From the NCBI GenBank assembly GCA_034431475.1, contig DAOUDE010000074.1, positions 31,348-95,347 of the forward strand: a stretch of DNA of 64,000 bases, written 5' to 3'. Under the pieces are notes generated by a model. The model was not told where the DNA came from. It worked only from the letters and a program-made list of their open reading frames with translations, and did not search any database. This document shows, in pieces, positions 3,332 through 42,104 of the stretch (within the stretch, counting starts at the first letter, position 1; each line of letters begins with the position of its first letter). Origin of the DNA: Thermomicrobiales bacterium (GTDB lineage Bacteria; Chloroflexota; Chloroflexia; Thermomicrobiales; UBA6265). The translations under genes and the position numbers were made by a program.

Positions 3332-3463
3332 GCGCCTCGCTCCTGTTGCCCACGTCTCGGTCCGCCAGGTTGAGTATAGGAATTGATTGTCTGCGCCCTG
3401 CCGCTCCGGTACACTCGGCTGCGAGGGAATGAGAGCCACGCAAACCTTTGACACGCTCGGTCT

Positions 3464-3630
3464 ATAGCGCCAGGACTCGCCACGAGGAGACGAGTCGACG
3501 AGGCGGGAGTCAATCGAAACACTCGGCGGATGGCTCCCCGGCAAGCACAGTCGAAACGGGCGGAACAAACCGGCAAGGCAACAAGCCGACAAAACCCTCC
3601 CGGAGTGCATCCTCTCACTTCCCATCACAA
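3464..3630 (+). ncRNA. glmS ribozyme: glmS ribozyme (GlcN6P-dependent self-cleaving riboswitch) in the glmS 5' leader
   Basis: AUAGCGCCAGGACU...GUCGACGAGG...AAUCGAAACACUCGGCGGAUGGCUCCCCGGC...CCGGCAAGG is colinear with the conserved glmS ribozyme core (A|GCGCC cleavage site at 3466/3467). It ends about 85 nt before the glmS ATG. The 3' boundary is approximate. Confidence 0.85.
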
Positions 3631-3716
3631 CTTGGCGATGGTGTACGCCTGGACGGTGGTTCAGTGCGGTCACCATGTTTCGCATTTGCCGGACGCAACA
3701 AGCCGGAGGACCAGGC

Positions 3717-5483
3717 ATGTGTGGAGTATTTGGGTACGTTGGCGCAGAGACCGACGTTGGAGCAACGGTGCTCTCCGCGCTGAAGACGCTTGAGTATCGC
3801 GGTTACGATTCCTGGGGAGTGGCGGTCGCCGCCGCGGACGGCATGATGGTCGACAAAGAGCCGGGCCGCATCAACGGCGTACACAAGCCCTTTCCGCGCT
3901 CGCGCAGCGGCCTCGGCCACACGCGCTGGGCAACCCACGGCGGAGTAACTGCCGAGAACGCGCACCCCCACGTGGATGAGGCCGGGCGCATTGCCGTCGT
4001 CCACAACGGGATCATCGAAAACCACGCTGTGCTGAAAACTGAACTGCTGGCGCGCGGTCACACGTTTCGCTCGGAAACCGACAGTGAGGTGGTCGTTCAC
4101 CTGGTCGAAGAAGCCCTGAATCAGGGTGAATCCCTCCCCCAGGCGGTGTCATCGGTTTTCGAAAGGCTCGAGGGGTACAACGCGGTCGTGGTCCTGGACC
4201 GAGCAAGCGAGCAGTTTGCCGCAGCCAAGCGCGTTTCTCCGTTGGTCATTGGCCGGGGCGCAAACGCCTCCACCATCGCTTCGGACGCAGTGGCAATGCA
4301 CGGTCACGCGGACGAGTTGATTTACCTCGATGACGAACAACTTGCGATCTTGACGGCGACGGGCATTGACGTGCTTGACCGTGTAACGCTTGAGCCATCG
4401 ACACCATATGTCGTCCCGATTCACGCAGCCGACAACGACATCGACCTTGGCGCACACCCGCACTTCATGGCCAAGGAGATGTCCGAGCAGCCGCGATCTC
4501 TGCGCCGCCTCGTACAGGAGGGCAGAGAAGAGATCACGGCGCTGGCAGCCGCCGTGCGAGAGTCTGATCGGGTCCTGCTGGTGGGATGCGGCACCGCCGC
4601 AAACGCCGCGCTGGCCGGGACTTACATCTTCAGCGACCTTTGCGGACGCGAAGCCAACCTTGTGGCGGCGTCCGAGTTCCGCTACCGCAGCGCCTTTCTG
4701 GATGAGCGCGCCCTTGTCATCGCCATCTCACAGAGCGGTGAAACCATTGACGTGCTGGAGGCCGTTCACGAAGCGCAAAGGCGCGGCGCGCGCGTAGCGG
4801 CCATCGTGAATACACCTAACTCGTCGCTCGACAGGCTTGTCAAGACCAGCGTGCATCTGCGCTCCGGCGTCGAGCAGTGCGTGCTGGCGACGAAGTCATA
4901 CACAGCGATGCTGGCGACGTTGATCCTGACTGCCTGTGAATTGAGCGGTGACTGGGACGCCGGAGCCCATGCTGTCGCCCGTGCAGCCGACACTATCGAA
5001 GCCATGCTGGGTAGTGGTACGCCCGACCAACTCCGTGAGCTCGGGGGATATGTTGCTTCACGCGAGCATATGTTCCCGATTGGCCGCGGCGTTCACTACG
5101 CTTCGGCGCTCGAGGCCGCCCTCAAGATCAAGGAAGTCAGCTATGTTCACGCCGAAGGATTTGCCGCTGGCGAGCTGAAGCACGGCGTGATCGCACTCAT
5201 CGAGCCTGGCACGCCGTGCCTGGTCTTCGCGGCATCCGATCTGACGCACACGGATGTACTCTCCGGAGCGGCTGAGCTGCGCAGCCGGGGCGGCTACATG
5301 ATTGGGGTCGGGAGTGAGCCAGACCCAACCTTCGATGCGTTCGTCACGGTGCCGGAAAGCGGCATCGCGAACGTCATCGTTGAAGCGCTCCCCGGACAAC
5401 TGCTTGGCTACTACGCTGCGCTGGCTCGCGGAAACGACCCGGATCGTCCCCGCAACCTGGCCAAGAGCGTTACGGTCAAATGA
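3717..5483 (+). CDS. glmS: glutamine--fructose-6-phosphate aminotransferase (isomerizing)
   Basis: Starts MCGVFGYVG (catalytic Cys2) after GGAGGA at 3705-3710. Two SIS domains; ends ...LAKSVTVK. Confidence 0.97.
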   Translation: MCGVFGYVGAETDVGATVLSALKTLEYRGYDSWGVAVAAADGMMVDKEPGRINGVHKPFPRSRSGLGHTRWATHGGVTAENAHPHVDEAGRIAVVHNGIIENHAVLKTELLARGHTFRSETDSEVVVHLVEEALNQGESLPQAVSSVFERLEGYNAVVVLDRASEQFAAAKRVSPLVIGRGANASTIASDAVAMHGHADELIYLDDEQLAILTATGIDVLDRVTLEPSTPYVVPIHAADNDIDLGAHPHFMAKEMSEQPRSLRRLVQEGREEITALAAAVRESDRVLLVGCGTAANAALAGTYIFSDLCGREANLVAASEFRYRSAFLDERALVIAISQSGETIDVLEAVHEAQRRGARVAAIVNTPNSSLDRLVKTSVHLRSGVEQCVLATKSYTAMLATLILTACELSGDWDAGAHAVARAADTIEAMLGSGTPDQLRELGGYVASREHMFPIGRGVHYASALEAALKIKEVSYVHAEGFAAGELKHGVIALIEPGTPCLVFAASDLTHTDVLSGAAELRSRGGYMIGVGSEPDPTFDAFVTVPESGIANVIVEALPGQLLGYYAALARGNDPDRPRNLAKSVTVK

Positions 5484-6271
5484 GCGATGCCCTGCCGCCA
5501 ATTTTCGACACCCATGCTCACCTCGACGATTCCGCTTTTGACGTTGATCGGCGAGAGGTTGTAGAACGTGGGCGCGCAGCCGGAGTGCAGCACTTCCTCA
5601 ATATCGCCTATCGGCCAGATATCTGGGAGCAGTCTGTCGCCCTCCGTGCCGCCCACCCAGGTGTCGAGTTGGCGGCGGGTCTTCACCCCCAGGACGCAGG
5701 GAGCTTCCGCGCCGCGCAGGCCAACGCGCTCGCCGAGCAGCTTCTCGCGCTGCGGCCGCTGGCCATTGGTGAGGCCGGGTTCGACTTTGCCCGGCCCGGC
5801 CCCACCTTCGGTGAGCAACAACGCGCCTTCCAATGGCAAATTGAAATCGCCATCGCCGCCAATCTCCCACTGGTCATTCATCAACGCGATGCTCAAGAAC
5901 ACCTCACCAGGGAGCTTGATGCCTGGCCCCAGTTGCGGGCGATCATTCTCCACTCCTTTGACGGTGACGCGCGGCTTGCCGCCTGGGCGGTGGAACGGGG
6001 CTGCTTCGTTGGGATCGGGGGCCTTGCCTGTCGCAAGAGTTCCCGTGTTCTCCGCGCCGCCTTGCAGCATATTCCAGTGGAGTCCCTTCTCCTGGAAACT
6101 GACGCTCCCTATCTGGCGCCCCCCAATGCGTCGTCGCGGCGCAATGAGCCAGCAAATCTGCCACTGATCGCAGCAGCACTCGCGCCGCTCTGGAACCTGT
6201 CGCCGGAACAACTCTGCTCCCAAACGACGGCCAACGCCCTGGGCGTTTTGTGCCTGGAATCGAGATCCTGA
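5480..6271 (+). CDS. tatD: TatD family metal-dependent hydrolase
   Basis: 263 aa; IFDTHAHLDDSAF N-terminal motif, LETDAPYLAP motif; ATGA start/stop overlap with glmS. Confidence 0.9.
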   Translation: MSDALPPIFDTHAHLDDSAFDVDRREVVERGRAAGVQHFLNIAYRPDIWEQSVALRAAHPGVELAAGLHPQDAGSFRAAQANALAEQLLALRPLAIGEAGFDFARPGPTFGEQQRAFQWQIEIAIAANLPLVIHQRDAQEHLTRELDAWPQLRAIILHSFDGDARLAAWAVERGCFVGIGGLACRKSSRVLRAALQHIPVESLLLETDAPYLAPPNASSRRNEPANLPLIAAALAPLWNLSPEQLCSQTTANALGVLCLESRS

Positions 6272-9490: not shown

Positions 9491-12400
9491 GAAGCAACCA
9501 GCACCTGCTCTGCCGGTTGCTTCACCCGGGCCGTCCCGGCCGCGAGTCTCACCGCCGCAATCCCTCCGACGGAAAGCAACTGATCTTGCAGTTCCTTGCT
9601 CCACTCAACGGAGCGCGACCGGCTGCGCAGGACGCGAAGCCGGCCACTGCGCATGGGAACCACGAACACGACCGGATTGTCACCTTCATACTGGCGCAAT
9701 ACGCGGTCAAGCTCTTGCAGCAATCGCACATCGGTCCATCTGTCCGACGCCGGCCCCAGCTGCACGACCACGCTTTCGGCTGGTGTCTGTGGCGCCGCAA
9801 GTGCTGGCAGGTCAGTGGTCATGGACTCACAAACGAGCTGGAGGGCTTCCCCGCGCTTCTCCAGCTTGCCTCGGATGTCGACGATGGTCCCTTCGCTCAG
9901 TACCCCGCTAAACTGCTCGTAGGTCGAGGGAAAAAGCACGACCTCCACCTGCGCTGACAGATCCTCAGCGTTAACGACGGCCATAGATTTGTTCGTTTTC
10001 GTCGTGATTCGCCGCACGCTCTCTATAATCGCCAGCACGCGCACTGAGCTATTGACCTCCAGGTGCTCGAGCTGCGAAATGTCGCAAATCGACCGGCCCT
10101 CCGGAGACGACGCAACTCTCTCCATGACCTCTGTCAGTGGGTGGTCACTCATGTACGTGCCAAGGAGTTCCTTCTCCCACTCGAGAACCTGCCGTGAGTC
10201 AAGCGTGACTTCTGGCAAGATGTCGACGGGCACTTCGTGAACGGAGGCCTCCCCAAAGAGATCCATCTGCCCTCGCGCCGACGCACGCTGTCGCTTCTGG
10301 GCGGCGCCGATTGCCGCATCCAGCCCCTCCAGGATCCCGCCTCGGTTGCCTAGCACATCCAGCGCGCCCGCCTTGGCGAGAGATTCCAGCACCCGCCGGT
10401 TCACAGTTCCCCACTCGATGGCGTCGCACAGGGCAGAAAGGCTGCCAAATGCGTGGTTTGGCGTGGCGCTGCGCTGGGCGACAATCGACGTGACGGCCCC
10501 TGTCCCGACATTCTTGACCGCCGCAAGCCCAAACCGTACCGCCTTGCCCGTTTCATGCGGCTCGACACTGAATTCGACACCGCTATGATTGATGCTTGGG
10601 GGAAGCACCACAATGCCGGATCGCCGGCATTCCGCGAGTAACGCGACGATGCGTTCGGTGTTGCCAAGTTCCGACGTGAGCAGTGCCGCCATGAACTCCA
10701 CCGGATGATTGGCCTTGAGGTACGCCGTTTGCGCGGCGATGACGGCGTAGGCGGCGGAGTGTGCTTTCGGGAATCCATAGCCCGCAAACTTCTCGATCAA
10801 GTCAAAGACTTCAGTCGCCAGCTTCTTTGCGATCGAGTTCTCGCCACACCCGGAAATGAACCGATCCCGGTACTTGGCCATCTGCTCCGGAAGCTTCTTG
10901 CCCATCGCCTTGCGTAGGCCGTCGCCTTCCGCCATGGAGAAGCCTGCCAGCACGTTCGCGATGCGAATCACCTGCTCCTGGTACAGCGCCACCCCGTAGG
11001 TTTCCGCCAGGATCGGTTCCATGTCCGGGTGCAGGTACGACGTCTCAGCCTTGCCATGCTTCCGGGATATGTAGTCAGGGGCCATCGCCATCGGCCCCGG
11101 CCGGATCAGCGCCATCAGCGCCACCAGGTCGTCAAAGCAGTTGGGGGCAACGTCGACGGTCATCCGGGCGGTCGTCCCGCTCTCCAGTTGGAAGACCCCG
11201 GCCGTTTCTCCTCGCTGGAGCAGCGCGAACGCATGATCGTCTTCGAGCGGGATGGTCTCCAGGGATATGTCGTGACCACCGGCCTGCAACAACGTGACGG
11301 CTTTCCCGAGCACGGTCAATGTGCGCAAGCCGAGGAAGTCCATCTTGAGCAGACCCAATTCCTCAAGCTGCGTCATCGGAAACTGAGTCGTGATATCCCC
11401 TTCGCTCTTGCCGCCAGCGCGCTGGAGAGGGACATGCTCCACGAGTGGGTCGCGCGAGATGACCACACCCGCCGCGTGGGTGGACGAGTGCCGGGCGATG
11501 CCCTCCACCTTGCGGGCGGTGTCAATCAACTCACGAACCGAATCCTCGGCATCGTAAAGCGCCTGCAGTTCTGGAACCTTCTCCATCGCGTTGGAGATGG
11601 TGATGCCAGGCCCGGTGGGAATCAGCTTGGCAACCCGGTCGACTTCGCCGAAGGATCTCCCCATCGCGCGGCCACTGTCACGAACCGCCGCCTTGGCGCC
11701 AAGTGTCCCGAACGTCACGATCTGTGCGACCCGGTCAGCACCATACTTCCTGACCACGTAGTCAATTACTTCGCCTCGTCGATCATCAGCGAAGTCAATA
11801 TCGATGTCCGGCATCGAGATGCGTGACGGATTGAGGAAGCGCTCGAAAATCAGGTTGTATTTCAGTGGATCGAGTCCGGTAATGTCGAGCGAATAGGTAA
11901 CGATGCTTCCAGCCGAGGACCCACGACCCGGACCAACCAGGATGCCGTTCTCTTTCGCGTACCTAATAAAGTCCCAGACCACCAGGAAGTAGTTTGAAAA
12001 CCCCATTCCGCTGATAACGCTCAGCTCGTACGTGAGCCGCTCCTCGACGGCGCCCGAAACGTGCCCATACCGCTTCTCGGCGCCAATCCGGCACAGGTGC
12101 TCCAGGTAGGCATCCGCCGTTTCGAACTCCGCCGGCCGCGGGAACTCCGGCAAGTGGTAGCCCTTGAAACTGAGATCGAGGTTGCACATCTCCGCGATGC
12201 GCATGGTGTTGCCGATGGCCTCTGGCACCCCGTCAAAAAGGCGCGCCATCTGCTCGCCGCTCTTGAGAAAGAGCTGGTCAGACTCGGTTTTCATGCGCTT
12301 GGCATCGTTCAAGGTTGCATTCGTCTGAATGCACACCAGAAGATCTTGCGCCGAAGCGTCCTCCTGATTGCAGTAGTGGACATCGTTGGTCGCCACCAGC

Positions 12401-13158: not shown

Positions 13159-13596
13159 TCAGGCGGCAACGCCGGCCAAACCGGGGCCTTCTTCGCGCCG
13201 CATGGCGAACTGTGCCTGTTCCGTCAAGAGTCGCAGAACCTGGCGGATGTTCTCCCGGTACTCCATTGGGACCGCGTCGTTCTGCAGGAGATCCAGCACC
13301 TCTCCCAACACCGGCTCATCCGAAAGCAGGCTGGAAACATCGCGAGGAAGGAACCCGGCCGCCGCCAGGAGGCCATCTTCCTCGGTCTGGGAAAGCGAGA
13401 GCGCCGTTGCAAGACGCTCAACCGCGTCCCGAGTTGGCATACGAGCGCCACTCTCCAGCCGGCTCACATAGCTGTGATCGAAGTCCGCACGCTCCGCCAG
13501 CTTGCTCTGGGAAACCCTTCGTCCCTCGCGCATTGACTTGAGAAGTCCGCCGAAATCCGCGCCTGCCTGTCCCATTGCTCTCACAACCTCTGCCAC
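13159..13596 (-). CDS. XRE family helix-turn-helix transcriptional regulator
   Basis: 145 aa; LLKSMREGRRVSQSKLAERADFDHSYVSRLESGARMPTRDAVERLATAL is a Cro/C1-type HTH. GTG at 13596, or ATG at 13575 as an alternative start. Confidence 0.8.
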   Translation of the reverse strand: MAEVVRAMGQAGADFGGLLKSMREGRRVSQSKLAERADFDHSYVSRLESGARMPTRDAVERLATALSLSQTEEDGLLAAAGFLPRDVSSLLSDEPVLGEVLDLLQNDAVPMEYRENIRQVLRLLTEQAQFAMRREEGPGLAGVAA

Positions 13597-14002: not shown

Positions 14003-14905
14003 ATGGGCATGACGGGGAGAAGCGATCTGTCAACAGCACGCTTGTTGCGCGGTGCGCCAGTCGCGCGGCGCATACGCCAGGACGTCCAGGTCGCTGCCGA
14101 GAATCTGCGTTCAGAGTTCGGGGTGCAGCCGGCGGTCGCGACGCTGCTGGTTGGCAACGCAGGTCCGTCAGCGGCCTATCACGAAGCGATCGGGAAGGCC
14201 ATGGGTCGTTGCCACATCAGCCACCTCGATGTCACGTTGCCAGTCTCGGCATCGACCCATCGCGTCATTGACGAGCTGCTGCGGCTGAACGCGGACCCGG
14301 CGATCCACGGGATCCTGGTGCTCTTGCCGCTGCCCCACCATATCGACGCTCAGGCGGTAATTTCTTCGGTGGCCCCGGACAAGGATGTCGACGGGATCGC
14401 GCCGCAGAGCGTTGGCCGTCTCCACCTGGGTCTCCCGGCGTTGCATCCAAGCACGCCGCAAGCTGGTCTGGAAATTCTTGACCACTACCAGATTCCTATC
14501 GCCGGGAAGCGGGCTACGGTCATTGGCCGCGGCAATGTCGTCGGTAAACCAATGGCAGCGCTCCTCACAGCGCGCGATGCCACGGTGACGCTCTGCCACA
14601 GCCGCAGCGTCCCGCTGGCCGAAGCCACACGCGAGGCCGACATCGTGGTCCTGGCGGCCGGCTTTCCCGATCTGCTGACTGGCGACATGATCCGGCCGGG
14701 CGCGACTGTCATCGACTTCGGCGTCAACGTCGCAGCCGGCAAGGTGTTCGGAGACGCCGACGCCGCATCCGTGATTCAGGTTGCAGGCGCATATACGCCG
14801 GTCCCCGGTGGCACAACCCCTGTGACCACCATGGTGCTCGCCCGCAATACGGTCACGGCCGCCTACGCCCTGGAGACCGCAGAGCCCACCTTTTCCCAGG
14901 GGTGA
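14003..14905 (+). CDS. folD: bifunctional methylenetetrahydrofolate dehydrogenase / methenyltetrahydrofolate cyclohydrolase
   Basis: ORF 13862..14905 trimmed to ATG 14003 (or 14009). ATLLVGNAGPSAAYH, ILVLLPLPHHID, GRGNVVGKPMAALL and PVPGGTTPVTTMVL motifs. Confidence 0.92.
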   Translation: MGMTGRSDLSTARLLRGAPVARRIRQDVQVAAENLRSEFGVQPAVATLLVGNAGPSAAYHEAIGKAMGRCHISHLDVTLPVSASTHRVIDELLRLNADPAIHGILVLLPLPHHIDAQAVISSVAPDKDVDGIAPQSVGRLHLGLPALHPSTPQAGLEILDHYQIPIAGKRATVIGRGNVVGKPMAALLTARDATVTLCHSRSVPLAEATREADIVVLAAGFPDLLTGDMIRPGATVIDFGVNVAAGKVFGDADAASVIQVAGAYTPVPGGTTPVTTMVLARNTVTAAYALETAEPTFSQG

Positions 14906-15101: not shown

Positions 15102-16163
15102 CTACGGATACCCCATGATAGGACGCGGCAGCGCCAGGTACGCGAGGTACGTGCCGTCAGCACTGAGCGCTGGCGACGTGCACGCCAACCCTGTCAACGT
15201 GTGCATGGTGGCTTCCGCGGTGCCTCCCCGCAGAACCGCAATCTGGCTCCCACTGTCTACCGCCAGCGTTCCGGTGGCATCGATCGCGGGATCGCGAGCG
15301 CCGTCAGCCAGAGCCGAGGTGACCGCCGACGGTTTTCCGCCCGTGGCTGGCAGCCGGTAAACGTCGCTCCGCCCCTCGACACTGGCCGAGTAGAGCAGGT
15401 CGTCAGTTGTCCTCTCCCAGATGATCGGAGCATTGGCCGTCATGCTTGTCAGGCGTCTTCCTGATCGCTCGGCAAGTTCCACGCGGAAGATCCCCGATGT
15501 CGCGCCCTTCTGCTCTGCCTGCACTGCCACAGCAATCGCCTCGCCGTCAGGCGACCAGGCCATGCTCGTCACGCTACTCCGTGCCACGTCGCTGTTTCCG
15601 CCACTCGCGCCACCCAGCGATGTCACCTGCTGCCGCATGTCCCCAATAACGTCGAAGACGCAAAGCTCATCGCCCTGTCCGTCCCAGCAGATGAACGCGA
15701 TCCGCGTCCCGTCTGGCGACCACGCAGGACCCCCACGCGTTACGATCGGGGGTCGGATGGCGCCATCTGGTCCGTCGTAGAGAGTTATGGGGGGAATCGT
15801 GGCCTCTGAATGGACGTTGACGATTCGCAGGAGCCGCGATTGCGGATCAAGGAACGCGATTTCGGAGTTATCTGGCGACCATGCCGGCCTGCCCACAATG
15901 TGCATCGCGGTCAGCAGGGAAACCTGGCTCGATGAGACGTTCCACACCTTCAGGCCGTGTTCGTCGCCCCAGGCCAGCATCTCACCATTCGGGGACCACG
16001 CAGGAGCGCCAAAAGTGTCGTCGATCCACCTGGGTGCACCCTCTGCTCCCGTGATGTAGAGCCCGGCGCGAGGCGAATCGGCCCTGCAGCCACAGAGAAT
16101 CAATGAGGCGCATGCTGCGCCAGACAATTGGAGCACCTGCCGGCGGGCAAGCCGCACGTTCAC
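15102..16163 (-). CDS. PD40 (TolB-like) beta-propeller repeat protein with Tat/lipoprotein-like signal
   Basis: 353 aa; N-terminus MNVRLARRQVLQLSGAACASLILCGC. Repeated AWSP(D/N)G blades (PAWSPNGEMLAW, PAWSPDNSEIAF, PAWSPDGTRIAF, MAWSPDGEAIAV). GTGA overlap with the recF stop. Confidence 0.8.
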   Translation of the reverse strand: MNVRLARRQVLQLSGAACASLILCGCRADSPRAGLYITGAEGAPRWIDDTFGAPAWSPNGEMLAWGDEHGLKVWNVSSSQVSLLTAMHIVGRPAWSPDNSEIAFLDPQSRLLRIVNVHSEATIPPITLYDGPDGAIRPPIVTRGGPAWSPDGTRIAFICWDGQGDELCVFDVIGDMRQQVTSLGGASGGNSDVARSSVTSMAWSPDGEAIAVAVQAEQKGATSGIFRVELAERSGRRLTSMTANAPIIWERTTDDLLYSASVEGRSDVYRLPATGGKPSAVTSALADGARDPAIDATGTLAVDSGSQIAVLRGGTAEATMHTLTGLACTSPALSADGTYLAYLALPRPIMGYP

Positions 16164-17383
16164 GCGGCGCTCTCGGCTGGGATCACCTGCCCAGCGGAAA
16201 CCTGGATGACCGGGAGGTGCGCAAGCTCGGGCGCATCCAGATCACTCAAATCCGTAGCGGTCACGCAAACCTGCGCGGGGCGCATCGCGATCGCTTCGAC
16301 GACCAGGCGGCGGTGACGCTGATCCAGCTCCGAGAGAACATCATCCAGGAGCAGCACTGGCGGCTCACCAGCACCACCTTGCAGCAGATCCACCTCGGCC
16401 AGCTTGGTGGCGACCAGTGCCAGCCGCTGCTGCCCGCGAGAACCAAATCTACCCAGGTCAACACCGTCGACTCGAAAGACGAGATCGTCACGGTGCGGAC
16501 CCACCGAAGTCACCCCACGTCGCAGTTCCTCCGCTCGCGCATTGCTCAGAGCACGCGCGAACTGAGCGGCTATCGTTTGCTGAACTCTGGTCATCTGCGG
16601 TTCATCGTGAGGCCCGCCAGTTGGCAAGCGGTCGATTGCCGTCAGGCGATGAGGTTGGTAAGCAATCTCGAGCGTCTCGATCCCTGTCAGGCGCGCGAAA
16701 TGCTCGCGTGCGAGGGCGTCCAGGCCGGCGACGTAAATGGCCCGTTCGGAGAGCACGATTGTCGCGGCCGAGATGAGTTCACTGTCCCAGAACGGGAGCT
16801 CCTGGGCGGCTCGTCGCACCGCCGCGCTGCCTGCCTCACGTGCCAGCGAGCGCAAGAGACCGTTTCGCTGCTCGAGAACGCGCGTGAACCGGGAGAGTCC
16901 TCGCAGATACGTGCGACGTGCCTGGCTGATGGCAAGATCGAGGAAGCGCCGTCTGCCGCCGGGGGGGCCGGAGAGAAGCTCAACGTCGTCTGGTGAAAAG
17001 AGGACGGTCTTGAACTGCCCGACGACATCGATGGCCCTGGCGGGCTGATCATCGAGCTGGACGCTCTTCTTGATGCCGCTTCGTCCGTGCTCGTCGATCG
17101 CCAGGCCGATAGCCACTGAGTGGACCCCGTCGGTTCTGGTGAACTCTCCGCGCAACCTGGCGTAGGGAGACAGACCAAACGCAACGCCACTCTCCCAATT
17201 TGCAAGTTCTCGCTCCGAGGAGGTTCGGGGCGAACGAGTCGTCGCCAGCATGGCGATCGCTTCCATCAAGGTGGACTTGCCGCTCGCATTGCTACCAACC
17301 GCGCGGAACCCGGCCGGGGCTACCTCCAGACGCAGCGACCGAAACGAGCGGAACTCATCGAGCTCAAGTAGACGGAGATGCAC
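16160..17383 (-). CDS. recF: DNA replication and repair protein RecF
   Basis: 407 aa; FRSFRSL...GSNASGKSTLMEAI Walker A, signature GSRGQQRLALVA, Walker B VLLLDDVLSELD. Confidence 0.95.
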   Translation of the reverse strand: MHLRLLELDEFRSFRSLRLEVAPAGFRAVGSNASGKSTLMEAIAMLATTRSPRTSSERELANWESGVAFGLSPYARLRGEFTRTDGVHSVAIGLAIDEHGRSGIKKSVQLDDQPARAIDVVGQFKTVLFSPDDVELLSGPPGGRRRFLDLAISQARRTYLRGLSRFTRVLEQRNGLLRSLAREAGSAAVRRAAQELPFWDSELISAATIVLSERAIYVAGLDALAREHFARLTGIETLEIAYQPHRLTAIDRLPTGGPHDEPQMTRVQQTIAAQFARALSNARAEELRRGVTSVGPHRDDLVFRVDGVDLGRFGSRGQQRLALVATKLAEVDLLQGGAGEPPVLLLDDVLSELDQRHRRLVVEAIAMRPAQVCVTATDLSDLDAPELAHLPVIQVSAGQVIPAESAA

Positions 17384-17398
17384 AAGAGAAGTCAGGCG

Positions 17399-18541
17399 CT
17401 AGTTCGCGCCGATGACCATCGGCATGATCACGTAGGTGTAATCCGTCGATTCCAGCGGGCGCAGCACGCCGGCCTGGTTCGACCCATTCATACCGAGCAC
17501 TACGCGGCCGGTCCGCAGCACACTCAGGACATCAAGGAGATAGCGTGAGTTGAATGCGATCTGTCCTTCTGGCCCATTCACTGCCGCAGACATTTCGCTC
17601 TGGCTGCTTCCCCGTTCCGCTGCTGTCGCCGAGACCTGCACCTGACCCGGCGCAAGCTCATCCGCGCTCACCTTGGCGCCAATTCGCACCACATCATTAT
17701 TGTCGCGTGCAAAGAACCCGGCGCGGCGGACGGCCGTGAGAAATTCCTCACGGCTAAGCTCGATTTCTGTCGCAAACTCCCGAGGAATGATCTGCCGGAA
17801 ATCCGGGAACGTGCCATCGATGAGCCGGGATGAAAAGGTCGTATCCCCGGTGGAGACAACGAGTTGTCCCCTGTTTGGGGTGACGGTCAGTTCGACCGGT
17901 TCTGTGCGGTCCCCCAGGATACGGGAAAGCTCACGCATGGCTCTGGCTGGCACAATGATGTCCAGGCGCTCCGTCACCGGGGCCGCAAGCTGACCTTCAC
18001 GCACGGCCAACCGGAAGCCATCAGCCGAAGCCATCGTCAGGCGGTCATCATCGAACCGAATCAGGACTCCAGCCAGAACTGGCCGACTGTCATCGGAAGC
18101 TGCGGCGAACTCGACCAGTCCAATCATCTCTCGCAGAATCTGAGGATCAACCGTCGCAGTGTATCCCCCAGCTTCTGGTTGCGGCATGAGCGGAAATTCG
18201 TCCGCATCGATGCCGTTGATTTCTGCGTCGGCGCCCAGGCCCTGCACCTTGAGCACCAGGCGGCCCTGGTCATTGGAGAGGCGCACTGGCTCGGCCGGAA
18301 GCGTGTTCACGAACTCGGACAGCAACCGGGCATCCACCGTCATCCGGCCCTGCTCGGTCACCTGTGCGGGAATGGAGGTGGAAATCCCGATCTCCTGGTT
18401 CGTGGCAGCGAGCTTGAGTGAGTCTCCTTCCGCTTCAATGAGGACATTGCTGAGCACCGGGTAGGTTGTTTTGGTGGCAACAGCGCGACTGACCTGGCTC
18501 AACGAGCGCTGCAACAGGTCTTGAGGAGCTGAAACATCCAC
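17399..18541 (-). CDS. dnaN: DNA polymerase III beta sliding clamp
   Basis: 380 aa; three-domain clamp pattern, ends ...YTYVIMPMVIGAN. GTG start with GGGAG 10 nt upstream. Confidence 0.96.
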   Translation of the reverse strand: MDVSAPQDLLQRSLSQVSRAVATKTTYPVLSNVLIEAEGDSLKLAATNQEIGISTSIPAQVTEQGRMTVDARLLSEFVNTLPAEPVRLSNDQGRLVLKVQGLGADAEINGIDADEFPLMPQPEAGGYTATVDPQILREMIGLVEFAAASDDSRPVLAGVLIRFDDDRLTMASADGFRLAVREGQLAAPVTERLDIIVPARAMRELSRILGDRTEPVELTVTPNRGQLVVSTGDTTFSSRLIDGTFPDFRQIIPREFATEIELSREEFLTAVRRAGFFARDNNDVVRIGAKVSADELAPGQVQVSATAAERGSSQSEMSAAVNGPEGQIAFNSRYLLDVLSVLRTGRVVLGMNGSNQAGVLRPLESTDYTYVIMPMVIGAN

Positions 18542-18587
18542 CCTGAACCACTCCCGCTACGATGCTGTACGGACACTCCGGGCGGCG

Positions 18588-18596
18588 AGTATAGCA
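18588..18596 (-). promoter_or_regulatory. extended -10 element (TGcTATACT) upstream of dnaN
   Basis: Minus strand TGCTATACT; would give a leader of about 40 nt. No good -35. Confidence 0.35.
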
Positions 18597-18676
18597 TTGC
18601 CTTTCCCTAGTCTCCGGACGCCAATCTTTGGCGGCTGGTTGGTCGAGCACTTTCCTGCTTCCCGATCCGTGACACC

Positions 18677-18723
18677 TTGACATGCAGAACACGTGTTCTA
18701 TACTTCGTTCAGAACAAAAGTTC
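18677..18723 (+). promoter_or_regulatory. consensus promoter overlapped by two LexA (Cheo-type) SOS boxes
   Basis: TTGACA 18677-18682, 16-nt spacer, TATACT 18699-18704. Box 1 is GAACACGTGTTC at 18687-18698. Box 2 is GAACAAAAGTTC at 18712-18723. Both carry identical CAGAAC/GTTCTA flanks. Confidence 0.75.
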
Positions 18724-18743
18724 TAAACGCTCGGAGGTTGGGC

Positions 18744-19364
18744 ATGAGCGCAGTTGAAACATTCGAGCCGGCAAAGTTCCTGACACGGGTGAACGGCTCT
18801 GAGTATCTCGAAGTGAAGTGGCGTCTCGTTTGGCTGCGGGATCGTCATCCGGAAGCTCAGGTGGAAACCGAGCTTGTGAGCCACCATGGCGATACCGCGG
18901 TCTTTCGCGCCCGTGTGGCCATTCCGGACGGCGGGTCCGCGACCGGCTGGGGCAGCGAGTCTGCCGGCGATTTTCGTGACTATCTGGAGAAGGCCGAAAC
19001 CAAGGCCATTGGCCGTGCCCTTGCCGCGCTGGGCTTCGGCACGCAGTTCTGTCCCGATCATGAGTTCGGCGCGATGGCCGGGCGCGTCGTCGATGCGCCG
19101 GTGAAGGTGAGCCGCTTCTCTCGCGGGCAGCAAAATGATGAGCGGCCGGCCGCAGTGGCTCCTGCGCCGGAGCAAGCGGCTACGCAGCGCCAGTTGCGCT
19201 ACATGCAGGCCGTGGCGCGCGAGGCCGGGTTCGATGCCCAGGCACTCGATGAGCTGGCTACCAGGGAATTTGGCGGTCCGGCGATGTCCTTGAGCCGCCG
19301 CGATGCCTCGGCGTTGATTGACCTGATCCAGAACCAGCAGGCTGAGGTTCCCCTGGCGTCCTAG
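18744..19364 (+). CDS. SOS-box-controlled protein with Rad52/Sak/DdrA-like single-strand-annealing signature (function inferred)
   Basis: ATG 18744 six nt after GGAGG (18733-18737); the track ORF starts upstream at GTG 18693 inside the promoter. YLEVKWRLVWLRDRHP...YLEKAETKAIGRALAALGFG resembles the Rad52-family KxAx(S/T)xAxxRAxxxxG(F/I)G motif. High GC3. Confidence 0.6.
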   Translation: MSAVETFEPAKFLTRVNGSEYLEVKWRLVWLRDRHPEAQVETELVSHHGDTAVFRARVAIPDGGSATGWGSESAGDFRDYLEKAETKAIGRALAALGFGTQFCPDHEFGAMAGRVVDAPVKVSRFSRGQQNDERPAAVAPAPEQAATQRQLRYMQAVAREAGFDAQALDELATREFGGPAMSLSRRDASALIDLIQNQQAEVPLAS

Positions 19365-19378
19365 GCGCCACCAGGAAA

Positions 19379-19606
19379 ATGGAGGTCGCTGTGGCTCGAA
19401 CAACGAAGAAGAAGGCAGCCCCTGTGGCGGAGGTCAGCGTGCTGCAGGAGCGCCGAGCGGCGCTGCGAGGCCGACTTGATGACGGGTACAGGCGTATCGA
19501 GGAGGCCGAGTTGGCCGGCGCCGATGTCGCTGAGTGGGAAGCCTTCTGGTTCAAGTTGCTCCACGAGTATGAGGATGTCTGCCGCGAGCTCGATCAGGCC
19601 GCCTGA
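19379..19606 (+). CDS. small charged helical hypothetical protein, second gene of the SOS-box operon
   Basis: 75 aa (71 aa if GTG 19391, which has GGAGG 5 nt upstream). High GC3. Followed by a hairpin terminator. Confidence 0.55.
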   Translation: MEVAVARTTKKKAAPVAEVSVLQERRAALRGRLDDGYRRIEEAELAGADVAEWEAFWFKLLHEYEDVCRELDQAA

Positions 19607-19624
19607 CAGGTACGGCGTTACAAG

Positions 19625-19665
19625 GCAGGAGGGGCCATGCCGGTTTCCAGCATGGCCCCTCCTGC
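19625..19665 (+). terminator. hairpin terminator
   Basis: GCAGGAGGGGCCATGC-CGGTTTCCA-GCATGGCCCCTCCTGC, a 16-bp stem between convergent genes. Confidence 0.65.
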
Positions 19666-19681
19666 TTGGCGTACGTTTCCG

Positions 19682-38703: not shown

Positions 38704-38838
38704 AGACCAGGCATGCCTCTCGGGACCTAACCGGATCGAGCCTGCGCGGGATCAGCACGGACCGGAATGTACGTTCACTGTGTACGAGTATACACCGGGC
38801 GGTCGAGAGGTGCGTGATATGACAAATGACAACGTGAA

Positions 38839-38866
38839 GCGGGGCAGGCGCCGACGCCTGCCCCGC
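38839..38866 (-). terminator. hairpin downstream of the secreted-protein gene
   Basis: GCGGGGCAGGCG-CCGA-CGCCTGCCCCGC, 27 nt after the stop; weak T tract. Confidence 0.55.
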
Positions 38867-38892
38867 CTGGAAGAATGAAACTACCGCAAGGT

Positions 38893-39900
38893 TTACGAGG
38901 TGGGCCCGAAGACAAACCTGGTGCTGGCGTTGCCGGAGCCGAAGGTCACGGAACCAACGTTACCGGTGAATCCATCCGGGTACGGCTCACCCACCCGAAT
39001 CCCGAGAAACGCATCGGTGACACGAATCCGCACTTGCGGATACTGCGCAAGGATGGCGTCCCAGGTCTTCTCTGTGTCGCTAGGCAGGTTGTCGTCCGGC
39101 CACAGTCCTCCAGAGAGGACCCACAGTGCGTCGCCGTTGCCGATCGCGTCCCATTCCTGCCACTTGTCCTCCTTCACCGAACCGTTGCTCTGGGGAACGA
39201 AGACCAGGCGCCGCTGCCAGGTATCGGTCCCGTTGAAGTCCACGTTGAAATGAAGGTAACCCGATGCATTCGGTCCCTGGTTGTTCGTCGCGGAGGCGTT
39301 GTACGTCGTGAACTTCAGTTGGCTGATGTCGGCCAACTTGACCCCGGCGAACTGGTAGGTGGCGATGTTCCTGCGCTGCTGTCCGGTAACCGTCATCTCG
39401 ACGCTTCCGCTGCCATACGGCGGATTGCCAGGACCCGTCACGAACTCGAGGAGAGAGTCATCCTTTTCGTCGGTCTCATCGTTGTATCCGAACCAATCAT
39501 TCATGCTGCCTGGACCAACCTGGACATCACAGGTCTTTCCGTCGGGGCAACTGCAAGTTCCATTGGTGCAGGTCTGGCCACCGCCACATGCGGTGCCGTC
39601 GGCAACGTTCGAGGTCACGCATGTGTTGCTCTCGCAAGAGACTGCCAGGCAAGGGTTCGTCGGCGTCGCGCAGACCTTGCCGTTGTCGTTGCACTCCTGG
39701 TTCTTTTCCTTCTTCTTCTGCTTGCGCTTCTGCTTTTGCTTACGCTTCTTCTTCTTGCTCTTGTCGGCCTCGGCGTCGAGGCCCAGCCCGATGCCGACCC
39801 CGGCAGCCCCAAGCACTGCCGCCAGTCCTTGAACCAGCGACCGGCGCGTCGGTGCGTTGGCGCGCTCGCGCACGAACTGATCGAATTCCCGGTCTTCCAT
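38893..39900 (-). CDS. Tat-signal secreted protein: poly-Lys tract, Cys-rich module, unknown C-terminal domain
   Basis: 335 aa; strong RBS GGAGG 6 nt before the ATG. PTRRSLVQGLAAVLGAAGVG twin-arginine signal, DKSKKKKRKQKQKRKQKKKEKNQE, then 12 Cys in about 60 aa (DGTACGGGQTCTNGTCSC). Confidence 0.7.
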   Translation of the reverse strand: MEDREFDQFVRERANAPTRRSLVQGLAAVLGAAGVGIGLGLDAEADKSKKKKRKQKQKRKQKKKEKNQECNDNGKVCATPTNPCLAVSCESNTCVTSNVADGTACGGGQTCTNGTCSCPDGKTCDVQVGPGSMNDWFGYNDETDEKDDSLLEFVTGPGNPPYGSGSVEMTVTGQQRRNIATYQFAGVKLADISQLKFTTYNASATNNQGPNASGYLHFNVDFNGTDTWQRRLVFVPQSNGSVKEDKWQEWDAIGNGDALWVLSGGLWPDDNLPSDTEKTWDAILAQYPQVRIRVTDAFLGIRVGEPYPDGFTGNVGSVTFGSGNASTRFVFGPTS

Positions 39901-40334
39901 TGAGTGCCTCCGTTGATTTGCTTGATTAACTCGATCGCGGACGAATGATTTCTGCGATCGGGGTGGTGGGTTCGGCTCCTCCTGCCACGCCGATGTCTCT
40001 GGTTCCGGTCTTCCAGCGCCCTGGCGGAACGGGCCTGTCTCCGAGTTCCTGTCGAGACTTCACGGCGCAGCACAACGTTCTGAAAACGTGGGTGCGTGCC
40101 GCTCCCGGGCGACGGTCAGCGGCCCATCGTCAGGAGCGGTCTCTCAATCCGGTTATCCAGTGCTGGCATTGCTCCTCGCCAACCACGTCGTTGGCTAGAA
40201 AACCGCGCCTGGTCTTCAGTGCGGCACGAACTCATTACGTTCTCGCAGGACCGACACCTGGGGGACGCGCCGTGCGGAGAGTCCGCCACCTCACCGCAGC
40301 GGGCGTGCCTGGGTCGTTACCCGGAACTAAGAGG

Positions 40335-40363
40335 AATCTACTGATGGGGTACATATCTGTCAA
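40335..40363 (-). promoter_or_regulatory. sigma-70 type promoter pointing at the secreted-protein gene across a leader of about 430 nt
   Basis: Minus strand TTGACA (40363-40358), 17 nt, TAGATT (40340-35). Confidence 0.45.
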
Positions 40364-40799
40364 ATTGAATGGATAATGAACATGCGTGCTAGTTGTTTAG
40401 GATTTGGTCATTTTGTATCGCACCGGGATATGTCCACGAGGCTTCTGCATCAGGATTTGCAGGAATTTTCGGCAAATCTTTCAGGAGGTTCGACGACAGA
40501 TTCGCAAATGCATGGGAAAACGTGAAGAATTGATAAATATTGACCGGGAACAGTGAGCGACCAATTTTTCAAGAAGACCCTTGGTGAAAGAAATCAGCAC
40601 ATTACACGCGCGGTCTCTGACGCCCGACCCAGGGCACCGGTTCAACGTTCAGGGAGTACCCGCCTGCCCAAGTCGCATGCTCTGCGCCGCGACGGCCTCA
40701 GCCGGATCGCTCGGCAGGCGCTGAAAACACGAGCATCACTGCGGGCACGGACTCCCAGTTGTGCGCAACGGCTGTGTTGAACGGTGGCGAAGGCATCGC

Positions 40800-42104
40800 C
40801 TACGACATCGCGACCGCACCCTTTAGTGCGTCGTCCAGCAATCTCCCCTTCGGCTGGGCCGTGAGGAGCCGGGCGATCTTCTTGAGCTTGTCTTTCTTCG
40901 GTGTGCCGTCCACGCGCAGATACTCTTCCGCCATGCTGGAGAGCATGTGCGGGTAGTCGCGCAGGAGATGTGGCCGGGCGTGAGCGAACTCGGTCACATT
41001 GCGGATTTTGTGCAAATCCTTCATCACCACGCTGTCATCCAGCAGTTCGCGGTAGCGGCTCAGTTGCATGGCCGAGAAATCGCCGACCGATCTGGCCTCC
41101 ACAATGGCCTGTCCTGCCAACTGCCCAGACAGCATCGCCAGGTTCGCGCCCTCCCGGTTCAGCGGGTTGACGAGCTGGGCTGCGTCCCCCACCACGACGG
41201 CGCCGTCCGTGAAGAGTCGCGGCAGGCGGTGGTATCCACCCTCGGGGATGAGGTGCGCCGAGTACTCCAGTGTCTCGCCGCCGGCAATCAGCGGCGCGAT
41301 CGCCGGGTGCTGCTTGAAGCGGTCAAGCATGTCATTGACGTTGAGCCCGGTGGCAATCAGGTCCTCGAGCAGTGCACCGGTCCCGATCGAGAGGCTTTCC
41401 TTGTTTGTGTAGATGAAGCCATAGCCCAGCAGGCTGGCCGTCGATTCGCCAAAGATTTCCAGTGCTGTTCCCATGCCTTCGGGCAACCCGAACCGGGCCT
41501 CGATGACATCGGCGGGCAGCGCGATCAACTCCTTGGCGACCAGTGCCTGTTCGATCGGCTCCCACTCCTGGTGCATCCCCAGGCGTTGCGCCAGCAGCGA
41601 GTTTGCGCCGTCAGCGATGACCACACAGTGCGCCAGCAACTCACCCTCTTCGTCGCCGGTCGTTACCCCCACCACGGCGCCGTCTTCCCAGAGCAGGTCC
41701 ACGACCGTGAACTCCGGGTAGACCTCCGCACCGGCAAGCTCAGCGGTGCTGGCAAACCACTGGTCGAACGGCGAACGCAGTACCGAGTACGCATTGAATG
41801 GCGGCGTGGCCAACTTCTGGGAGCGATACGTTGCACCCATCATCGCGTCAGTCGTCAGGAACATATACCGCTGCTCGATGATGGGGCGCTCCAGCGGCGC
41901 TTCATCCTCGAATCCCGGAGACATAGCCTCCGTTGGCTCCCGGTACAGAATCCCGCCCCAGACATTTTTGGCGCCGGGAAATGCGCCTCGCTCCAGCACC
42001 ACCACGCTCAGACCGGCCGCCGCCATGGTCTTCGCGGCGGCTATCCCGGCCGGCCCAGCGCCGACCACGATGGCGTCAAACCGTTCATCATCCATCTCGC
42101 GCAC
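40800..42104 (-). CDS. fixC: FAD-dependent oxidoreductase, FixC / ETF-quinone oxidoreductase-like
   Basis: 434 aa; FDAIVVGAGPAGIAAAKTMAAAGLSVVVLERG dinucleotide fold; FixC-like length and C-terminus. Confidence 0.85.
   Translation of the reverse strand: MREMDDERFDAIVVGAGPAGIAAAKTMAAAGLSVVVLERGAFPGAKNVWGGILYREPTEAMSPGFEDEAPLERPIIEQRYMFLTTDAMMGATYRSQKLATPPFNAYSVLRSPFDQWFASTAELAGAEVYPEFTVVDLLWEDGAVVGVTTGDEEGELLAHCVVIADGANSLLAQRLGMHQEWEPIEQALVAKELIALPADVIEARFGLPEGMGTALEIFGESTASLLGYGFIYTNKESLSIGTGALLEDLIATGLNVNDMLDRFKQHPAIAPLIAGGETLEYSAHLIPEGGYHRLPRLFTDGAVVVGDAAQLVNPLNREGANLAMLSGQLAGQAIVEARSVGDFSAMQLSRYRELLDDSVVMKDLHKIRNVTEFAHARPHLLRDYPHMLSSMAEEYLRVDGTPKKDKLKKIARLLTAQPKGRLLDDALKGAVAMS

Follow-up and report, generated by a model that had tools for sequence, protein, structure and literature searches.

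An origin-like AT-rich island in a Thermomicrobiales genome probably serves as promoter and upstream control region for a secreted-protein gene

Promoters of the sigma-70 type are directional and tied to the gene downstream of them, and the locus described here shares with them a TTGACA hexamer, a 17-nt spacer, and a TAGATT hexamer that are conserved in orthologues. UP elements add AT-rich DNA of ~20 nt just upstream of the -35 hexamer. The operators of dimeric helix-turn-helix regulators such as CRP (TGTGA-N6-TCACA) are 16-bp inverted repeats with 5-nt arms and a 6-nt spacer, positioned at a fixed distance from the promoter—a geometry that is also found here. With riboswitch-type leaders, the locus has in common a long, conserved, GC-rich, and noncoding leader that carries a structure signal and an internal Shine-Dalgarno-like element; with the bacterial origin of replication (oriC), it has in common AT-rich DNA within a long noncoding gap.

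From each of these systems, the locus also departs. Its AT-rich region extends over ~250 nt instead of the ~20 nt of an UP element and has the most extreme composition in the 64-kb stretch of DNA that was analyzed (hereafter the window). The half-site of its palindrome, TGCAA/TTGCA, is not a half-site of CRP or FNR, and the palindrome is centered near -125, which is much further upstream than classical class I/II activator sites. For a sigma-70 promoter, the leader of the transcript would, at ~430 nt, be unusually long. In contrast to riboswitches, this leader matches no Rfam family, and it was detected only in one clade, where it precedes a single gene and its orthologues. Unlike oriC, the island has no DnaA-box cluster, no skew switch, no adjacent dnaA/dnaN, and no counterpart in the closest relative. 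By sequence criteria, the island is ordinary in kind—a sigma-70-type promoter with an upstream operator. What is unusual are the depth and the length of the AT trough, the distal and distance-locked putative operator, and the long, probably structured leader. We consider it probable that the island acts as promoter and upstream control region for the gene of a secreted protein at 38893-39900; this promoter/operator reading rests on sequence and about nine independent loci.

A first-pass annotation of the window had pointed to a low-GC island within a gap free of credible ORFs (39901-40799), and both observations hold. The 280-nt segment at 40325-40604 has a GC content of 41.4%, compared with a mean of 63.2% (sd 3.1%) for 280-nt segments across the 64 kb. 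The runner-up reaches 51%, and the island is therefore the minimum of the whole 64 kb and by far its most AT-rich stretch. At a resolution of 100 nt, the GC content is 38-48% at ~40318-40605 and 60-70% on both sides, and no other intergenic region of the 64-kb window falls below 51%. The gap itself holds short ORFs only. Also, the coordinates of all motifs listed in the annotation proved exact on direct reading of the sequence (Table 1), and the consensus promoter it had seen at the left edge of the island is indeed a near-consensus sigma-70-type promoter, located on the minus strand.

On the right, the gap is bounded by the stop codon of the gene of a FixC/ETF-QO-like FAD-dependent oxidoreductase (FAD or FixC gene). 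Its neighborhood is syntenic in 61 loci from genome bins, by which the organism was judged to be a member of the Thermomicrobiales (Chloroflexota). As both flanking genes are read from the minus strand, the secreted-protein gene has the island on its upstream side. The island is hence not located at the point where the coding strand flips, as had been proposed: the actual strand switch is found 1.5 kb away, at the junction (~42.1-42.2 kb) between the FAD gene and a divergent acyl-CoA dehydrogenase gene, whose true start was set by alignment to its homologues. The underlying tally of coding strands was roughly right: a crude selection of genes by GC3, in which the FAD gene and a few others are missing, gives the minus strand ~66% between 9.5 and 42.1 kb and the plus strand ~85% between 42.1 and 64 kb. 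Between the FAD stop codon and the island lies a GC-rich and poorly conserved trailer. In one orthologous locus, L003, this trailer is missing, and the AT-rich stretch begins directly behind the stop codon of the FAD gene. The hairpin at 40587-40611, on the upstream margin of the island, represents a possible terminator of the FAD transcript. It is weak on its own because the scan yielded one terminator-like site against 1.3 expected by chance.

Table 1. Features of the locus in window coordinates. Identities are column identities from a conservation profile over six orthologues.
Feature	Position	Strand	Remarks
Secreted protein, 335 aa	38893-39900	-	Twin-arginine signal, Lys-rich linker, Cys-rich module, C-terminal beta-sandwich domain
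Genuine Shine-Dalgarno sequence GGAGG	39907-39911	-	6 nt upstream of ATG at 39900; kept in all orthologues
5' leader, ~430 nt, GC-rich, noncoding	39901-40328	-	Conserved length (455-468 nt from -35 to start codon) and conserved blocks; 54% identity over 39913-40328
Most conserved leader core, ends in GCAGGAGG	39976-40078	-	68% identity
Best-supported leader hairpin UUCUAGCCAAC...GUUGGCGAGGA	40173-40200	-	Compensatory changes in orthologues
AT-rich island, 41% GC	40325-40604	-	Composition kept in orthologues; 34-39% identity outside the two conserved elements
-10 hexamer TAGATT	40335-40340	-	TASATT at same spacing in orthologues
Most conserved block of the gap, TTATCCATTCAATTTGACAGATAT	40353-40376	-	-35 hexamer TTGACA and conserved 12-nt upstream extension; 91% identity over 40375-40355
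Operator-like palindrome TGCAAATCCTGATGCA	40446-40461	-	Family consensus YGCAA-N6-TGCR; contains GGATTTGC; 62% identity
Weak intrinsic-terminator-like hairpin GCGCGTGTAATGTGC, then TGATTTCTTT	40587-40611	-	Upstream edge of island
FAD gene 3' trailer, GC-rich	40621-40799	-	Poorly conserved; 37% identity
FixC/ETF-QO-like FAD-dependent oxidoreductase	40800-42104	-	Pfam and NCBIfam matches; synteny in 61 Thermomicrobiales loci
First-pass motif GGATTTGG	40400-40407		Coordinates confirmed
First-pass motif GGATTTGC	40453-40460		Coordinates confirmed
First-pass motif GCAAATC	40472-40478		Coordinates confirmed
First-pass motif GCAAATGC	40504-40511		Coordinates confirmed
First-pass 'DnaA-box-like' 9-mer TTATCCAGT	40153-40161		Coordinates confirmed
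First-pass 'DnaA-box-like' 9-mer AATGGATAA	40368-40376		Coordinates confirmed
First-pass 'DnaA-box-like' 9-mer TATGTCCAC	40429-40437		Coordinates confirmed
dnaN	17399-18541		
dnaN-recF	16160-18541		

The promoter carries TTGACA at 40363-40358, a 17-nt spacer, and TAGATT at 40340-40335, with 10 of 12 positions matching. Together with its upstream extension, it forms a block of the form TRTMCATTYAAT-TTGACAGAT-(17-nt spacer)-TASATT, which sits 455-468 nt upstream of the start codon in eight loci: the window, L003, L066/L067, L069, L072, L073, and L076. These count as seven independent loci, since L066 and L067 are the same sequence; two further loci, L068 and L070, show variants of the block at the same place. 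The 12-nt extension upstream of the -35 hexamer could be UP-element-like or could represent a second protein-binding site. The predicted transcription start lies at about 40326-40329 on the minus strand. A plus-strand promoter was not found in the island. The window holds TTGACAGAT once more, at 14025-14033, but in other surroundings and without the upstream block. When metagenomes were scanned for the promoter pattern CATTYAADTTGACAGAT, the 120 matches were chance occurrences on unrelated, mostly AT-rich contigs, none of which carries the leader or the gene.

The assignment of the island to the downstream gene is based on a comparison of related loci. A blastn search of the gap against 64 FAD-gene loci gave no match at E <= 1e-3, and the comparison was hence made via the secreted-protein gene, which in the window is followed by ftsK. 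The order FixC, ~1 kb gap, secreted protein, and FtsK recurs in L003, L066, and L069. L070 bears the same gap and FtsK behind a different upstream gene, and in L068 and L072, the secreted-protein gene is likewise followed by FtsK. Wherever both ends are present on the contig, the gap measures 650-1040 nt. In each locus, a GC trough of 24-46% is located at and upstream of the promoter, followed by 65-75% GC up to the start codon. The AT-rich trough is also present at paralogues in other genomic contexts: three distant family members (L198, L074, and L075) show an AT-rich promoter island and a leader of 250-430 nt, with an additional GGAGG that is followed by no start codon of its own and lies 65-85 nt ahead of that of the gene.

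The closest relative with both flanks, L002, has FixC, FtsK, and RecR proteins that are 91%, 86%, and 97% identical to those of the window. Here, ftsK directly follows FixC across a 415-nt spacer of 55-73% GC, and neither the island nor the secreted-protein gene is present. As a control, the region downstream of the FixC gene was inspected in 50 loci for a deep AT trough, which appeared in three of them. In L003, it accompanies the secreted-protein gene; in L058, it is the short promoter region of a different signal-peptide gene; and in L011, it is an artefact of masked Ns. A deep trough after the FAD gene is thus confined to loci in which the next gene has its promoter there, and the island therefore belongs to the promoter of the downstream gene and not to FixC or to the chromosome position.

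Besides the promoter, one further element of the island is conserved, and both are tied to the downstream gene. This second element is a palindrome, whose extended arms CTGCA/TGCAG span 40445-40462 (CTGCA-N8-TGCAG) and which most likely is the site of a dimeric helix-turn-helix regulator. Its center would be located ~125 nt upstream of the predicted transcription start. Six of nine loci have the start of the palindrome at precisely 98 nt ahead of the first T of the -35 hexamer; for a site anywhere in a 50-nt band, the chance is ~0.2% per locus. The exceptions are L003, where it is degenerate, L068, where it is absent, and L070, where it is located at 70 nt. No regulator gene adjoining the palindrome was seen among the neighboring genes, and a literature search for the motif found no match.

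The first-pass annotation had approached the same region from a different repeat and had offered, as one reading, a multi-operator regulatory region for the secreted-protein gene. The regulatory region is backed by the comparison; of the four GATTTGC-type motifs, only one falls into a conserved element. The 7-mer GATTTGC occurs 10 times in the window, with 9.1 expected, and so shows no enrichment. The shorter GCAAAT/ATTTGC occurs three times in the island against 0.34 expected (post-hoc P ~0.004) and only zero to one time per orthologous island. Several operators of this sequence were hence dropped from consideration, because the repeat is enriched in this genome only. Similarly, the suggested pairing ATTTGC-N11-GCAAAT is not conserved, and the palindrome described above is the relevant one.

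The replication origin proposed in the same annotation—with the island as DNA-unwinding element and the weak 9-mers as DnaA boxes—draws on AT-rich DNA within a large gene-free gap, on the presence of dnaE, dnaN, recF, ruvB, recR, and ftsK in the window, and on the coding-strand switch ~1.5 kb off. However, the GC skew is negative on both sides of the island and changes sign nowhere in the 64 kb, with the cumulative skew falling almost monotonically from 1 to 64 kb. Allowing for up to one mismatch to TTATCCACA, the gap contains no DnaA box, and the window contains two against 3.9 expected. Each of the three 9-mers has at least two mismatches to this sequence, and AATGGATAA corresponds, as its reverse complement, to the conserved block that directly precedes the -35 hexamer. 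The island is flanked by two minus-strand genes, the FixC-like one and that of the secreted protein; dnaN lies at a distance of 22 kb; and dnaA was not found among the 29 window ORFs (a subset) that were scanned with Pfam. Repeated 13-mer-type units, as in unwinding elements, were not found in the island, L002 retains FixC and FtsK yet has no island, and conservation is confined to a directional promoter and a single palindrome that go with the downstream gene. Of five oriC features, four are thus absent, and the fifth, AT-richness, is uninformative here because it is explained by the promoter region. The island is not a replication origin, a reading to which we assign next to no probability. 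A dif/terminus reading, prompted by the neighboring ftsK, was dropped as well, as there is no skew change and no dif-like 28-mer was seen by eye in the island. The main value of the comparison is therefore corrective: an island that looks origin-like, close to replication genes and a strand switch, turns out as a promoter region by comparison, and composition together with weak 9-mers is insufficient to call an oriC.

Closer to the preferred reading is a plain promoter, in which only the -35 and -10 hexamers are functional, the palindrome reflects shared ancestry, and the AT-richness reflects the relaxed composition of an untranscribed spacer. The three deviating palindromes among the nine loci and the genome-specific GCAAAT/ATTTGC repeat agree with this, and so does the missing A-tract phasing: helical phasing of AA/TT in the islands of nine loci is not significant (p = 0.09-0.78), so that intrinsic curvature of the island is unsupported. 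We nevertheless regard a plain promoter as unlikely, for the 98-nt distance is exact in six loci despite the divergence of the DNA between palindrome and -35 hexamer to 39% identity, the island stands apart in composition from every other intergenic region of the window, and paralogues in unrelated contexts likewise have the trough on their upstream side. Alternatively, a nucleoid-associated protein might cover the AT tract and repress the promoter, with the palindrome-binding factor acting as a counter-silencer. Targets of the Lsr2/H-NS type in other GC-rich bacteria show this AT-rich pattern, and the extreme AT-richness, conserved in composition while not in sequence, would fit. The gene itself, however, has a native composition (GC3 0.77) and a conserved syntenic position and so does not look foreign, and a silencer of the Lsr2/H-NS type is not known from Thermomicrobiales; silencing is in our view a doubtful explanation. 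An unannotated small RNA—already offered as an alternative in the first-pass annotation—or a small protein encoded by the island itself could be read from short ORFs of 28-54 aa on both strands and from a local hairpin around 40454-40478. Against this, neither strand of the island folds better than shuffles (z +0.41 and +0.99), Rfam gives no match beyond chance at E <= 10, and no promoter was found on the plus strand. Outside the promoter and the palindrome, moreover, orthologous islands share only 34-39% identity, so that no conserved peptide or RNA is present there, which leaves this reading very improbable.

As promoter and upstream control region, the island would serve a gene whose product is itself poorly described. 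No Pfam or NCBIfam family covers the secreted protein, a sequence search of the PDB gave nothing, and a metagenome scan with the protein found no relative. Full-length homologues are found in Thermomicrobiales only; the C-terminal domain of ~200 aa is widespread in Chloroflexota and bacteria of the candidate phyla radiation. The AlphaFold model is confident (mean pLDDT 83), and in Foldseek it resembles beta-sandwich carbohydrate-binding modules and lectins only weakly (E ~1e-3, TM ~0.5). These model-based matches hint at a glycan-binding role.

Between promoter and start codon, the leader is itself conserved. The leader of the window shares 69% identity over 375 nt with that of L069, with the proteins being ~60% identical. 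In tblastx between orthologous leaders, the similarity is spread evenly over all six frames, and the leader is thus not coding. Its conserved core ends with a second Shine-Dalgarno-like GGAGG at 39978-39982, which has no start codon after it. A search of Rfam 15 over the gap gave nothing at the gathering score and, at E <= 10, two chance-level hits only. With a profile HMM of the leader core, no paralogous copies were found elsewhere in the loci searched; the core was detected only upstream of the orthologues of one gene, in one clade, and in this context.

The evidence for structure comes from the alignment. RNAalifold on six leaders proposes 16 helices, in which 27 of 75 pairs are changed on both sides, compared with 12.7 +/- 2.4 in shuffles and 5-14 in slid controls—a count that is circular, since these six sequences had also served to choose the structure. 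When the structure was re-predicted on column-shuffled alignments, the leader gave z = -4.06, its reverse complement -3.88, and a coding control from the same genomes +0.24. For the island alignment, the same procedure gives z = -4.58, but the energy behind it is a trivial -3.9 kcal/mol and comes essentially from the small palindrome. As a single sequence, the leader folds unremarkably (z = -1.19). Judged from six to nine sequences, the leader appears to be under selection and is probably structured. We tentatively propose, as a possibility that we hold to be less than even, that it represents a new structured cis-regulatory RNA, clade-specific in Thermomicrobiales, which together with a distal phase-locked operator in an AT-rich platform controls a secreted glycan-binding-like protein. 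Such an RNA might either sense a ligand or a protein or act as a switch that masks the ribosome-binding site via the internal GGAGG.

Taken as a working model—in which transcription start, protein binding, direction of regulation, and role of the leader are predicted—these elements could cooperate as follows. RNA polymerase with the housekeeping sigma factor would recognize the extended promoter at the left edge of the island and transcribe from ~40328 leftward through the ~430-nt leader into the gene at 38893-39900. A dimeric helix-turn-helix regulator bound to the palindrome might act on the promoter from ~-125, by phase-dependent contact or looping, with the surrounding AT-rich DNA as a flexible or protein-coated spacer. 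The right edge of the island probably terminates transcription of the upstream FixC-like gene. The leader might add a layer of control after initiation, possibly by competition among UUCC at the 5' end (40323-40326), the internal GGAGG (39978-39982), and the true Shine-Dalgarno sequence (39907-39911).

Beyond this single gene, the locus shows at the sequence level what is rarely seen in uncultured Thermomicrobiales, a promoter architecture with an extended -35 block and a putative distal operator at a fixed distance. The leader—long, conserved, probably structured, and not contained in Rfam—is located upstream of a widespread secreted protein family and might be of interest to specialists. A structured 5' leader of a known type, the glmS ribozyme, lies at 3455-3612 in the same 64-kb window.

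The cassette of island (the AT-rich control region), leader and secreted-protein gene, ~2.1 kb in length, is wholly absent from L002, the closest relative with flanking DNA (L002 11303-11717 versus window 38704-40799), but is found at the same position in L003, L066, L069, L070 and other Thermomicrobiales loci, a presence/absence polymorphism that suggests its loss in the L002 lineage. The three genomes compared (window, L002 and L003) share a strongly conserved stretch of ~90 nt 5' of ftsK, the gene beyond the secreted-protein gene. This block reads TGTATACTCGnACACAGTGAACGTACAT... and harbors TGnTATACT, which resembles an extended -10 element. On these sequence grounds, ftsK probably bears its own promoter and a short leader, with or without the cassette next to it.

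The secreted protein itself belongs to a family for which there is no Pfam or NCBIfam model. Its C-terminal β-sandwich domain of ~200 aa is widespread, occurring in Chloroflexota, Microgenomates and Roizmanbacteria, and in other proteins the same domain is joined to pentapeptide repeats, RTX repeats or β-helix domains. A second Shine-Dalgarno-like GGAGG recurs in all leaders of the family, ~65-85 nt 5' of the start codon and with no start codon after it. Paralogues whose surroundings are unrelated have it too, and the loci concerned include L197, L198, L074 and L075. This element could act as a decoy, as a standby site or as an anti-anti-SD element.

The window holds two exact matches to TTGACAGAT, with 0.29 expected. 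The second copy lacks the conserved upstream block, that is, the 12-nt extension next to the -35 of the island promoter, and ~430 nt downstream of it lies an apparent small helix-turn-helix gene, as judged by eye from the translation. As a paralogue in L074 also has TTGACAGAT ahead of it, this sequence may be a favored strong -35 form in this clade. The GC-rich trailer that runs from the stop codon of the FixC-like oxidoreductase gene to the island contains an imperfect inverted repeat with 16-nt arms (75% complementary, 73 nt apart), which is not conserved among orthologues.

No dnaA was found upstream of dnaN and recF (window 16160-19681). The sole content of the 1.1 kb upstream of dnaN is one ORF without a Pfam match, readable on either strand, and a GC trough of 51.5%, the third lowest of the window; no DnaA box with up to one mismatch is present in this 1.1 kb.

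An Rfam scan returned a full-length match to a known family, the glmS ribozyme/riboswitch (71 bits, E = 2.4e-14), showing that leader RNAs of this genome are picked up by such a scan. Immediately downstream follows a 602-aa ORF, presumably glmS.

Coordinates of the features discussed (window positions unless a locus is named)
Feature	Position	Strand	Remark
glmS ribozyme/riboswitch	3455-3612	+	
602-aa ORF	3675-5483	+	
Helix-turn-helix gene	~13159-13596	-	apparent
Second TTGACAGAT copy	14025-14033	-	
recF	16160-17383	-	
dnaN	17399-18541	-	
GC trough	18588-18787		upstream of dnaN
ORF without Pfam match	18693-19364 or 18723-19403	+ or -	
Conserved ftsK-upstream block	38704-38794	-	L002 ~11600-11717; L003 ~5620-5720
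Secreted-protein gene	38893-39900	-	
Second GGAGG	39978-39982	-	in leader of secreted-protein gene
Inverted repeat	40652-40756		imperfect
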